Shown: one piece after another, positions 16,461 through 19,446 of the stretch
How positions within the stretch are numbered: the first letter of the stretch is position 1
How the letters are laid out: the number at the start of each line of letters is the position of its first letter
Assembly: GCA_010093605.1 (NCBI GenBank)
Contig: MU004185.1
Coordinates: forward strand, 765,334 to 829,333
DNA from: Lophium mytilinum
Taxonomy: Eukaryota
Length of the DNA: 64,000 bases
Reading direction: 5' to 3'
The notes under the pieces: model-generated
Databases searched by the model: none
What the model was told of the DNA's origin: nothing
Seen by the model: only the letters and a program-made list of their open reading frames with translations
Made by a program: the position numbers and the translations under genes

Positions 16461-17301
16461 ATGGCCAAAATCGCCATCGTTTTCGTAAGTTCTCGACTTG
16501 ACTGCTTTCCGAAGGCCGGCAAGGCTGACCCCCCGTAACATTAGTACTCGATGTACGGGCACATCCAAAAGCTCGCCGAGGCTGAGAAGAAGGGCATTGA
16601 GGCTGCGGGCGGCTCTGCCACTCTGTACCAGTACGTCTCGCCTACACCCAGCTGATGGCACCGGTTCTGGTACTGATCCCGACGTAGAATTCCAGAGACG
16701 CTCCCACAAGAAGTCCTGACCAAGATGCACGCTCCTCCCAAGCCCTCTGACATCGAGGTTGCAACTCCTGCTGTGCTCGAGCAGTATGATGGCATTCTCT
16801 TCGGCATCCCCACCCGTTATGGTAACTTCCCCGCCCAGTGGAAGGCCTTCTGGGACTCCACCGGTGGCCAATGGCAGACTGGAGGATACTGGGGAAAGTA
16901 CGCTGGTGTGTTCGTCTCTACCGGCACGGTAATGCTTGACCCTCCCATTTGGCTACCTTGACGCAGTCTAATTTTGTGTATAGCCGGGCGGCGGACAGGA
17001 ATCGACTGCGATTGCCGCGTTGAGCACCCTCACCCATCACGGGTTCCTCTACGTACCCCTGGGCTACAAGACCTCCTTCGCTATCCTAGCGAACCTGGAT
17101 GAAGTGCGTGGAGGGTCCCCATGGGGTGCGGGTACATTTGCGGTATGTATTTCGGTCTTTTCTACTACTCTGTTACAGGCGCTGATAGTGTACTTGCAGG
17201 GCGTCGACGGCTCCCGTCAGCCCACAGCTCTTGAGCTCGAGTTGGCCCACAAGCAGGGTGAGGCTTTCTACGGAGCCGTGTCGAAGGCTTTCCCGGCGTG
17301 A
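16461..17301 (+). CDS. PST2: Flavodoxin-like NAD(P)H:quinone oxidoreductase, WrbA/Pst2/Ycp4 family (introns 16485-16544, 16631-16687, 16929-16983, 17143-17199); possible readthrough extension to 17478
   Basis: [25 protein letters not shown]...[18 protein letters not shown]...[23 protein letters not shown]...[12 protein letters not shown]...[27 protein letters not shown]. The family is clear; the exact yeast orthologue (PST2/YCP4/RFS1) is not resolved. Confidence 0.93.
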
Positions 17302-17743
17302 CTAGGAAAAGCAGAAGGGGGGCCAGCATCGGGTAGCGCGAATGGTGCAAAGCAAATATCACAAGATGAACCGAAGCCAGCTGAGACGAAGAACAACAAC
17401 TCTCAGAGGCCGGTAGAGGAAGAGAAAAATGCGAAAGAGGGACCATGCGGCCTCCCGAGCAAGTGCCTTATATTGTAATGGCTCTAGCGACTTTAACCCG
17501 AGCAGGACAAATTCTCAGCATATTGATTAATTCTTATATTCGTGAACCATTGTAGCACGTGATGCATTAAGTAGTAGAGGGCCATTAATGAGACAAGGTT
17601 TGCGCAAGTTTTTCTCCTATTCCGAGGACCAGATCGTGAGCATTGACCCGTTGTTGAGCTTGATGCAACCCGCTAAACCCCATGAATGCCAGAAGCCAGC
17701 GCATGCCTCTTAAACAAATGAAACCCAAACTTTTTCCCAAATA

Positions 17744-17827
17744 AAATGTACCAGACGAAATGTACCAGACGAAATGCACCAGATGAAATGCACTAGATGA
17801 AATGCACCAAATGAAATGCACCAGAAA
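17744..17827. repeat. 14-bp minisatellite AAATGYACCAGAYG x6
   Basis: Six adjacent units are directly visible between two convergent gene ends. Confidence 0.9.
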
Positions 17828-17885
17828 ATAACTGCCAAACCCATAAAGTCACCCGGACATATTTTCGATTGTCAGGTGTTGTCCC

Positions 17886-19446
17886 TTAAGCGCGTATAGA
17901 AACCCAGTTCTTGCGCATGCCGCCCATGAACTCGTCTTCGTCAACACGTTCAAATGGTTCTTCCTCGTCTTTGCCATACAGGCCGGTGGATCCGTAAGGG
18001 CCTTTCCGAGAAAGAGACCGCGACACAGGCCAGGCTCCACTGGATGCCAACTGGGCGAGCTGAAAATCGCCATGAACCGCGTTCACGTGCGGCTCGAATA
18101 TGTAATCTGCAAAGAACAGCTCAATGAACAAGCTTTCGGGTATGTGACAGCTCGCTCGGGCAGCCACAAGGCTGCGAGCTTGTTCAAGCACTTGCTGGAG
18201 GGATGAATGGGCCTCGTGGGTAGATCGGCCATCTTCGTGGCCGCACAATCGAGCGGCCCGGACTTGCATGTCTCCAGACCAACGGACGTTTTCGTTGGCA
18301 AACAAAGCAGAGCACATCGATGGGACCGACAGTGAGACTGTCTCCAACTTGGGACAGCCAGTGAGGACAGTGCAAAGGTGCTCGCTGTCAGGAAGCGACC
18401 CGGGGTGGGGATGGAAGAATCCGTCGTTAGATCGAGGGGAATGCTCCAGCACTCTCAAGGTCGACTGAGAAGACTTCACCACTGCCATCACACCTAATTA
18501 CATAGCTTTAGTATTTGGATGAGACGAACTAAGGCATCAGAGATATCTTACCATCGATTGAGATTGTTGAGAGGCAGGTCAAGTGGAACTCTTCTAGTCT
18601 TGCAGCTGTCCGAGCAATGGCTTGAAGATCCCGATCATCGATCGGCATGAATGTTGAATTGCCAAACACCTTGAGTCTACGTAGCTGACTGAAGTCCACT
18701 AAAGGAGATTCCAATGGACGAAGGTCAAGCTGATTCTCCGGCTCTCCAGCTAGAGCAGCTGGCAAGTCAACCGCAAGGAGTTCCAGCGACTTTAAGGGGG
18801 CCTCGGTGCCAACCAGCAACTGCGCCCAGTCTCGGGCAGCGAGATGCCTCAGCGTGGTCCAGGGCAGACTGACAGCCGTTAGGTTTGTGCAGCTTCGAAG
18901 CGCAGAGGAGATTTTCAGGTCTGTCCCGTAGGTATAGAAACCATCGAACCACATACGACGAATCTTCGACGCCACTTCGGGATAGTCGGCAAGTAGCTGA
19001 ACTGTACGATTGAGGGATCCGTAAGGGTCCTTGTACACAGCCGTGCCCGACGGCTTTTCTACAAGCTCATACAGGCGGTAGGCTTCTACAACACCAGTCA
19101 GTCAGTGATCACTTTCTGGGAGTGTTTTCCTTGTACCTCGTCTCTGCGATAGCTCAGCCCAGCGCTCGGCGCCCTTCCAACGGCGGATGTAGACGTCTTT
19201 CATGGCGTACTTCAGGCCCCATTCGTGCCAGACCCAGCACACGTGGCGGATGGAAGCGGTGGCGTCCCACCTCAGCAGTTCGGTAGGGACGGGTCCTCTA
19301 ACGTAGCGCTGCAGAGCTGTCTTTTGGAGCGGCAGAGGAGCTTGGGACAGGCCGAAAGTAAAGGTGACGCCATCCCGCTGGTTGAGCTGGGCGGCAGTCT
19401 CGAGAATCTGTGCGAGTATTTCGTATGGAACGGCGTTGATGCTCAT
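17886..19446 (-). CDS. Conserved fungal protein with F-box-like N-terminus and LRR-like repeats (introns 19136-19086 and 18551-18494)
   Basis: MSINAVPYEILAQILE...IRHVCWVWH resembles an F-box. LRR-like segments include CTNLTAVSLP, FSQLRRLKVFG, LEEFHLT, CPKLETVSLSVP. Three ORF pieces join in frame through canonical introns. Confidence 0.75.

Follow-up and report, generated by a model that had tools for sequence, protein, structure and literature searches.

In a 64,000-nucleotide (nt) stretch of the genome of Lophium mytilinum (GenBank assembly GCA_010093605.1, contig MU004185.1, positions 765,334 to 829,333 of the forward strand; hereafter the window) we found a gene for a flavodoxin-like quinone reductase whose coding sequence ends at a TGA in the context TGA-CTA-G and continues in the same frame into an extension that closes with a CaaX box. 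The TGA and the tail behind it are both contained in the mature mRNA, and the stop, its context, the reading frame and the CaaX end are deeply conserved among relatives. We therefore consider it likely that programmed readthrough at UGA-CUA yields a minor, CaaX-lipidated isoform, so that one mRNA would give rise to both a soluble and a membrane-tethered enzyme. A sequence-only reading of the window had proposed readthrough onto a CaaX anchor, and the comparative and RNA evidence presented here supports that interpretation; we infer the readthrough itself, its rate, the lipidation, the tethering of oligomers and the localisation, eisosome included. The central elements, numbered by their positions in the window, are the following:

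17299-17305, plus strand: leaky stop context TGA-CTA-G, read from the window and conserved in relatives
17302-17436, plus strand: putative readthrough extension, a variable hydrophilic linker of 45 codons in frame with the domain
17437-17475, plus strand: conserved tail EGPCGLPSKC-LIL, with the upstream Cys at 17446-17448 and the CaaX box CLIL at 17464-17475
17476-17478, plus strand: terminal stop TAA of the extension, read from the window

The domain ends in ...SKAFPA, and the codons across the stop read GCG TGA CTA GGA, with the TGA at 17299-17301. Behind it lie 58 in-frame codons without a stop (17302-17475; LGKAEGG...EGPCGLPSKCLIL), and the second Cys precedes the CaaX Cys (17464-17466) by six residues. 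The end has the geometry of a CaaX box, i.e. Cys at -4, an aliphatic a2 and CLIL directly before the TAA. All of these elements, from the stop and the CTAG to the 58 codons, the second Cys, CLIL and the TAA, were found where the sequence-only reading had placed them. An open run of 58 codons is by itself not rare (by our estimate it is expected in about 1 in 10 cases), so that the window taken alone is suggestive at most and the case beyond chance rests on conservation in relatives. A Pfam search of the extension returned no match.

Relatives were collected by scanning metagenome contigs with the key [ESG]GPCGLP[STN]K, which gave 55 loci. Fifty of these loci keep the domain's last helix, a single stop and the tail in one frame: going upstream from the tail, 44-100 open codons lead to a stop that sits directly behind the last helix. 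Core and CaaX tail are thus not part of one uninterrupted frame, since a TGA lies between them in the window and in 50/55 loci. Four of the remaining loci (three of them distinct) use another route, described below, and one (L055) was too short to assign. The distinct sequences of the readthrough type, the window included, number 39 and fall into 19 groups at 40% linker identity. As the search key ended at the Lys, the CaaX Cys, the aliphatic a2 and the stop three codons on are independent of the selection of the loci. Independently, a HMMER query made of exon 5 and the extension, with the TGA written as W, matched seven protein fragments over its whole length, all ending in GPCG...Cxxx; five of the seven carry a W exactly at the stop position. 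One fragment (P0017) has a W also at its second TGA, which indicates that these W residues are TGA codons translated by a code-4-style gene caller. Two fragments (P0007 and P0009) apparently have no stop at the junction of core and tail.

Across the 39 distinct sequences the leaky stop is always TGA, followed without exception by C at +4 and T at +5; A at +6, giving CTA, is found in 31 and the full CTAG in 24. The conserved TGA-CTA, open frame and terminal CaaX that the sequence-only reading had suggested looking for in orthologues are thus borne out, with TGA-CT in 39/39. The tail's own stop, which serves as an internal control in the same 39 sequences, varies freely (18 TAG, 15 TGA and 6 TAA), as does the base preceding the leaky stop. 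CTA is rare among the Leu codons elsewhere in these sequences (3/72 in the adjacent helix and 2/39 at the Leu of the tail) and yet predominates directly after the stop, which argues that CTA is selected there as a nucleotide or RNA sequence. Over 2416 codons of the extensions there is not one stop in frame 0, against 68 in one of the alternative frames and 121 in the other. Conservation continues beyond CTA(G), with T at +9 in 34/39, G at +10 in 36/39 and G at +11 in 29/39; the codon at +7 to +9 changes its meaning (Asp, His, Tyr, Pro, Ala or Ser) yet keeps T in third position. These positions may belong to an extended readthrough context or to a conserved Leu-Asp-Gly start of the linker; the window itself (17308-17312) deviates in this part (GGA AAA). 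The invariant positions of the family (UGA, C, U) coincide with the published positions of the readthrough signal: CU after UGA is described as enough for readthrough to be efficient in Ustilago maydis, and UGA CU(A)(G) as sufficient for readthrough in U. maydis and human cells; UAG or UAA in place of UGA lowers readthrough, the first two downstream bases weigh most, and A at the third downstream position, often followed by G, is stimulatory in human cells (all as stated in PMC4207609). UGA CUA G has also been named the high-readthrough motif (PMC12233894).

The protein encoded behind the stop appears to be under selection as well. The tail keeps the residues G-P-C-G-L-P-S/T-K-C, while Gly and Pro are each written with all four of their codons, Ser with both of its codon families, and synonymous sites within the motif are saturated, which suggests that selection acts on this motif at the protein level. 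The CaaX Cys, an a2 of I, V or L and a stop exactly three codons after the Cys are present in 39/39 sequences; at the X position L occurs 29 times, M 7 times and V, Q or T 3 times. The extensions of the relatives are 44-100 amino acids long and always in frame with the domain. Pooling 13 disjoint pairs gives a ratio of non-synonymous to synonymous differences (pN/pS) of 0.51 for the linker. Three close pairs show stronger conservation in the extension than in the flank after its stop, with gaps only of 3 nt in the extension and frame-breaking gaps in the flank; in a fourth pair the conservation of extension and flank is no different. As a side observation, the loci L004 and L008 share 90.5% identity across the extension but only 75.8% across the final 99 nt of the domain. 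This inverts the usual pattern and may reflect recombination, or an exchange between paralogues, affecting the domain.

RNA contigs cover the stop and the extension. Contig X1 (1591 nt) has 0 differences from the window and lacks all four introns, and therefore represents spliced RNA; from 17199 on it passes without a break through the TGA and the entire extension and reaches beyond 17800. Two further contigs, X2 and X3, stem from a relative (~97%; 8 differences in 314 nt), have the last two introns spliced and are unbroken from 17199 to 17512, where both of them end; this common end may be a poly(A) site, although nothing firm can be made of it. Hence an assembly error does not account for the TGA, which is also not removed by editing in the main RNA; the mRNA extends past the stop of the extension, and an in-frame intron that could bypass the TGA, GTGAGG(17258)...CAG(17314), is not used in the main transcript. 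Three of the counter-cases named in the sequence-only reading were checked and do not hold: the RNA contigs run past 17478, upstream of which polyadenylation had been considered, and a sequencing error or a strain-specific nonsense mutation is at odds with a TGA that is present in RNA with 0 differences and with a ~93%-identical orthologue (P0016) that likewise ends in ...SKAFPA. Among the relatives, eight loci (seven distinct) are contigs of 1.0-1.3 kb with an uninterrupted coding sequence for 203-207 amino acids, followed by TGA and tail. These seven distinct, mRNA-like contigs represent mature mRNAs of other lineages that retain the stop.

A different route to the same tail is taken by three distinct loci (L044, L045/L048 and L047), in which the core ends in ...AKAFG/GTGCGTAAA (the slash marks the junction) and a canonical intron joins the tail in frame:

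L044:769-901, intron reaching the tail, 133 nt
L045:1595-1659, intron reaching the tail, 65 nt
L047:1589-1697, intron reaching the tail, 109 nt

These introns have a GTGCGT donor and an AAG acceptor that is in frame, with CTAAC or CTAAT lying 15-20 nt ahead of the acceptor; a TAA at their fifth to seventh bases is in frame with the core. L044 is an mRNA-like contig from which the upstream introns have been removed while the last intron is retained, so that its frame ends at the TAA within the intron; its lineage may produce short and long forms through intron retention. Database (NCBI) models from Podospora, Colletotrichum and Fusarium show a junction of the L044 type. Judged from these sequences, the same tail seems to be reached by a leaky stop, an intron or an open frame in different lineages; the latter two routes had not been anticipated for relatives in the sequence-only reading.

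Public annotation treats the family inconsistently: most models end at the TGA and others invent differing introns to reach the tail. Among the best 120 homologues of exon 3, 82 are 198-208 amino acids long and end at the stop (KVNFA, KAHP, KAFPA and similar), 7 are tailed, 21 are fragments and 10 are other long forms without the tail. A single-sequence search for longer relatives gave one match; a profile search gave 66, comprising 59 tailed models (236-281 amino acids) and 7 helix-only matches, six of them from basidiomycetes. The tailed models come from Penicillium, Aspergillus, Sclerotinia, Botrytis, Pyrenophora, lichen fungi and Sordariomycetes. The junctions with which models bridge the stop differ between close species (Sclerotinia nivalis, S. 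sclerotiorum and Botrytis), and one model (P0163), compared to the close locus L016, implies a gap of 21 nt that removes ...VNFA-stop-LD and is too short for an intron. At least some of the tailed models are therefore artefacts that skip the stop; on sequence comparison the stop-bridging models (P0019-P0075 and P0163) look like annotation artefacts, although some lineages may truly have lost the stop through an in-frame deletion. The Penicillium and Aspergillus models may reflect a genuine intron, loss of the stop or faulty modelling. For Monilinia fructicola two annotations exist side by side, of 203 and 233 amino acids.

According to our gene model, the window gene has five exons on the plus strand (coding sequence 16461-17301), introns of 55-60 nt and a product of 203 amino acids:

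16461-16484, plus strand: exon 1 of the flavodoxin-like quinone reductase, starting with ATG; gene model, with the joint 16484->16545 (GT..AG, 60 nt) in RNA contig X1
16545-16630, plus strand: exon 2; gene model, followed by a 57-nt joint in X1
16688-16928, plus strand: exon 3, FMN_red / flavodoxin-like core; gene model and Pfam FMN_red score
16984-17142, plus strand: exon 4; gene model, with joints skipping 55 and 57 nt in X1, X2, X3 and a further contig, X20
17200-17298 (stop to 17301), plus strand: exon 5, last helix of the domain; gene model, aligns with the last helix of 30 relatives
17479-17800, plus strand: 3' untranslated region, at least to 17512; X1 runs past 17800

Exon 3 alone, a piece of 80 amino acids, scores 23.9 bits against a cut-off of 24 for Pfam FMN_red. 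The close orthologue P0016 (203 amino acids, 93% identical to the window over exon 3) exceeds the cut-offs with 37.6 bits for FMN_red and 37.4 bits for Flavodoxin_1; it matches the structure of yeast Pst2 (5mp4) with E = 5.7e-77 over residues 1-199 and the WrbA structure 2r96 with E = 1.6e-50, WrbA structures in general giving ~1e-50. The closest named relative, from Hyphodiscus (Helotiales), is 85% identical over exon 3. By domain content and full-length similarity the window gene is assigned to the WrbA/Pst2-type flavin mononucleotide (FMN)-dependent NAD(P)H:quinone oxidoreductases; FMN binding, tetramer formation and quinone reduction are predicted from membership in this family. Downstream of the gene, a 14-nt unit (AAATGCACCAGATG) is repeated in tandem at 17744-17825 (5.9 copies, 91% matches). 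The repeat lies inside X1 and is thus transcribed, either as part of a long 3' untranslated region or within the transcript of a convergent neighbour. An open frame of 203 codons on the minus strand (17886-18497) converges with the 3' end of the gene, and X1, which reaches ~450 nt past 17800, may join the transcripts of both.

The proposed mechanism would proceed as follows. Most ribosomes would terminate at the UGA (17299-17301) and release the soluble subunit of 203 amino acids, whereas a minority would decode the UGA by a near-cognate tRNA, owing to the weak-termination context UGA-CUA-G. Residues inserted at a UGA that is read through are Trp, Cys or Arg. Readthrough would add 59 residues, i.e. 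a disordered hydrophilic linker and the end EGPCGLPSKC-LIL, to give a subunit of 262 amino acids. Its CaaX box, with Leu as X, would probably receive a geranylgeranyl group and be trimmed and methylated, and palmitate would probably be added to the Cys that precedes the CaaX Cys by six residues; a second Cys close to a prenylated Cys is the usual arrangement for palmitoylation. The long subunit, together with any tetramers that contain it, would thereby be tethered to a membrane, probably the plasma membrane.

Several points speak against this mechanism or narrow its basis. Translation beyond the TGA is deduced from comparative and RNA evidence. A stable RNA structure downstream of the stop was looked for and not found (z = 0.04), so that the rate of readthrough may be low. 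The constraint on the linker is moderate: one pair (L031/L034) gives a ratio of non-synonymous to synonymous rates (dN/dS) of 1.45, another has 0 synonymous changes and 1 non-synonymous change, and in the 8 pairs compared, nucleotide alignments of the more distant ones place gaps in the extension that are not multiples of 3, probably as alignment noise that prevents a count of indel phases. As the loci were picked by the tail motif, its conservation is partly built in and orthologues without a tail lie outside the sample; tails of the Eurotiales type (GLPKKC) were excluded by the search pattern and are absent from the DNA sample. Two of the 8 differences in X2 and X3 are listed, and the TGA of that relative is taken from the end of P0016 (...SKAFPA). 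A joint in contig X20, 16876->17426, spans the stop without splice-site ends (GA..GA, side 28). With such ends and so short a side we rejected it as a splice junction and ascribe it to a different organism or a chimera.

One alternative is that the tail is joined by alternative splicing in a minor isoform from which the TGA is removed, in which case readthrough would be irrelevant. The sequence-only reading had itself pointed to GTGAGG(17258)...CAG(17314) as a way around the stop, and an in-frame GT..AG candidate of 57 nt is indeed present there; its use did not hold up, since X1 is spliced at the four real introns and unspliced across the stop, and the GTGAGG donor is common to the window and L016 alone (2/39). 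In none of the 39 sequences do the 60 nt upstream of the TGA contain a GTRNGT donor, and the relaxed GTRNG occurs in 7/39 at scattered positions, so that RNA contig and donor counts together rule out this intron, or any conserved donor, as the conserved route to the tail. RNA contigs lose rare isoforms, and a minor spliced form could go unseen in them; moreover, three distinct relatives do reach the tail by a canonical intron, several NCBI models bridge the stop with introns, and L044 shows both that the two forms can coexist in such a lineage and that an mRNA-like contig can retain what is an intron in its lineage. Against this, splicing would delete the last helix and would leave the invariant TGA-CT and the bias towards CTA unexplained, while the bridging junctions of the models disagree among close species and in one case imply the gap of 21 nt mentioned above. 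We consider splicing as the source of the tail in the window distinctly unlikely.

It is also conceivable that the extension is translated but that its end serves mainly as a redox, metal-binding or protein-binding module or as a degradation signal (Cys-x5-Cys) instead of a lipid anchor. GPCGLP is as conserved as the CaaX Cys downstream of it, although prenylation alone needs no such motif, a1 is often acidic (CDIM, CEIL, CEIM), and X spans the preferences of geranylgeranyl and farnesyl transferases. All 39 sequences nevertheless place a Cys four residues from their end and an aliphatic residue at a2, and 36/39 have L or M as X. That is the defining geometry of a CaaX box, and the yeast relative Ycp4 is reported to end in a CAAX box (PMC4556627) and to be palmitoylated (bioRxiv 10.1101/2023.04.27.538084), so that we regard this explanation as unlikely. 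A chance open frame, or the degenerating remnant of a Ycp4-like tail that was severed by a nonsense mutation or a sequencing error, would fit with an open run of 58 codons being not rare and with the 82 of the best 120 homologues that have 198-208 amino acids and no tail. It is highly improbable in view of a TGA that is found in RNA with 0 differences, of a stop, context, frame and CaaX end present in 39 sequences from 19 groups, and of tail residues that are kept while synonymous sites are saturated. Finally, a conserved in-frame TGA is a hallmark of selenoproteins; we give next to no credence to selenocysteine at this position, as an Rfam search of 17100-18300 (E <= 1) found no family, selenocysteine insertion sequence (SECIS) elements included, fungi are described as being without selenocysteine machinery (PMC4207609), and the conserved CU(A) is a readthrough signal and not a requirement for selenocysteine.

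Readthrough at UGA-CUA, which we favour, closely resembles the fungal and animal enzymes that expose a peroxisomal targeting signal type 1 (PTS1) by readthrough (PMC4207609; for human LDHB, PMC4359377), in which UGA, C at +4 and U at +5, often followed by A and G, are likewise conserved among orthologues. In both cases a minor, C-terminally extended isoform carries a sorting signal and one mRNA serves two locations (here by our reading of the sequence), and splicing leads to an equivalent end in other lineages, just as it does for fungal PTS1 proteins. In contrast to the PTS1 systems, the exposed signal is a CaaX box with a second Cys and not a tripeptide, the extension is 44-100 amino acids long with a variable linker, and the destination would be a membrane surface and not the peroxisome matrix. 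The second point of comparison is Ycp4. In Candida albicans it is described as having an extension of ~90 amino acids with a CAAX box as its terminus (PMC4556627), in agreement with the linker and CaaX tail that the sequence-only reading had given for Ycp4; in Saccharomyces cerevisiae it is reported as palmitoylated, with flavodoxin-like proteins found at eisosomes and the plasma membrane (bioRxiv 10.1101/2023.04.27.538084). The window gene thus shares with Ycp4 of both yeasts the enzyme family and the order of core, long hydrophilic extension and C-terminal CAAX box (PMC4556627), a likeness drawn from the published description; yeast sequences were not among the matches of the homologue searches run. 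As described, the yeast tail is, however, an ordinary part of the protein, and Pst2, Rfs1 and others are separate genes, whereas in the window core and tail are split by a stop; since the TGA separates them, the window gene could work like Ycp4 only if the TGA is read through. Pst2 (PDB 5mp4) and WrbA have a matching core but end after the last helix without a CaaX tail. The intron-type relatives (L044, L045/L048 and L047, and the Podospora, Colletotrichum and Fusarium models) share the core and the end KEGPCGLPxKCaaX and differ in having an intron of 65-133 nt with a CTAAC/CTAAT branch motif, whose TAA, when the intron is retained, ends the short form.

The literature we searched, with subscription journals and the supplementary tables of PMC4207609 outside its scope, contained no report linking readthrough with CaaX boxes, prenylation, Ycp4, flavodoxin-like proteins, quinone oxidoreductases or eisosomes in this sense. 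The class of mechanism is known; the gating of a lipid anchor, and the apparent exchange of leaky stop, intron and open frame for one and the same tail, appear to be new. Taken together, we think it fairly probable that an old and widely conserved recoding event in filamentous ascomycetes meters a lipid-anchored isoform of a plasma-membrane antioxidant quinone reductase through UGA-CUA. It would be the first case of readthrough controlling lipidation and membrane tethering instead of peroxisome import, with three interchangeable routes to the tail: a leaky stop, an intron that is retained or spliced, and an open frame like that of yeast Ycp4. So far, functional readthrough has been described in fungi and animals chiefly for concealed peroxisomal signals, and a deeply conserved CaaX case would carry the principle over to lipid anchoring. 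Enzymes of this kind guard membranes against oxidative damage and are of importance for the virulence of Candida (PMC4556627), and the family includes allergens labelled Alt a 7 and Cla h 7 in databases, so that the true forms of these proteins are of practical interest. If our reading is true, it would account for how filamentous fungi come to produce Pst2-like as well as Ycp4-like forms of the enzyme, and selection would work on how many subunits are anchored relative to those left soluble; that one tail is reached by three routes would then offer a natural experiment on the evolution of isoform ratios.

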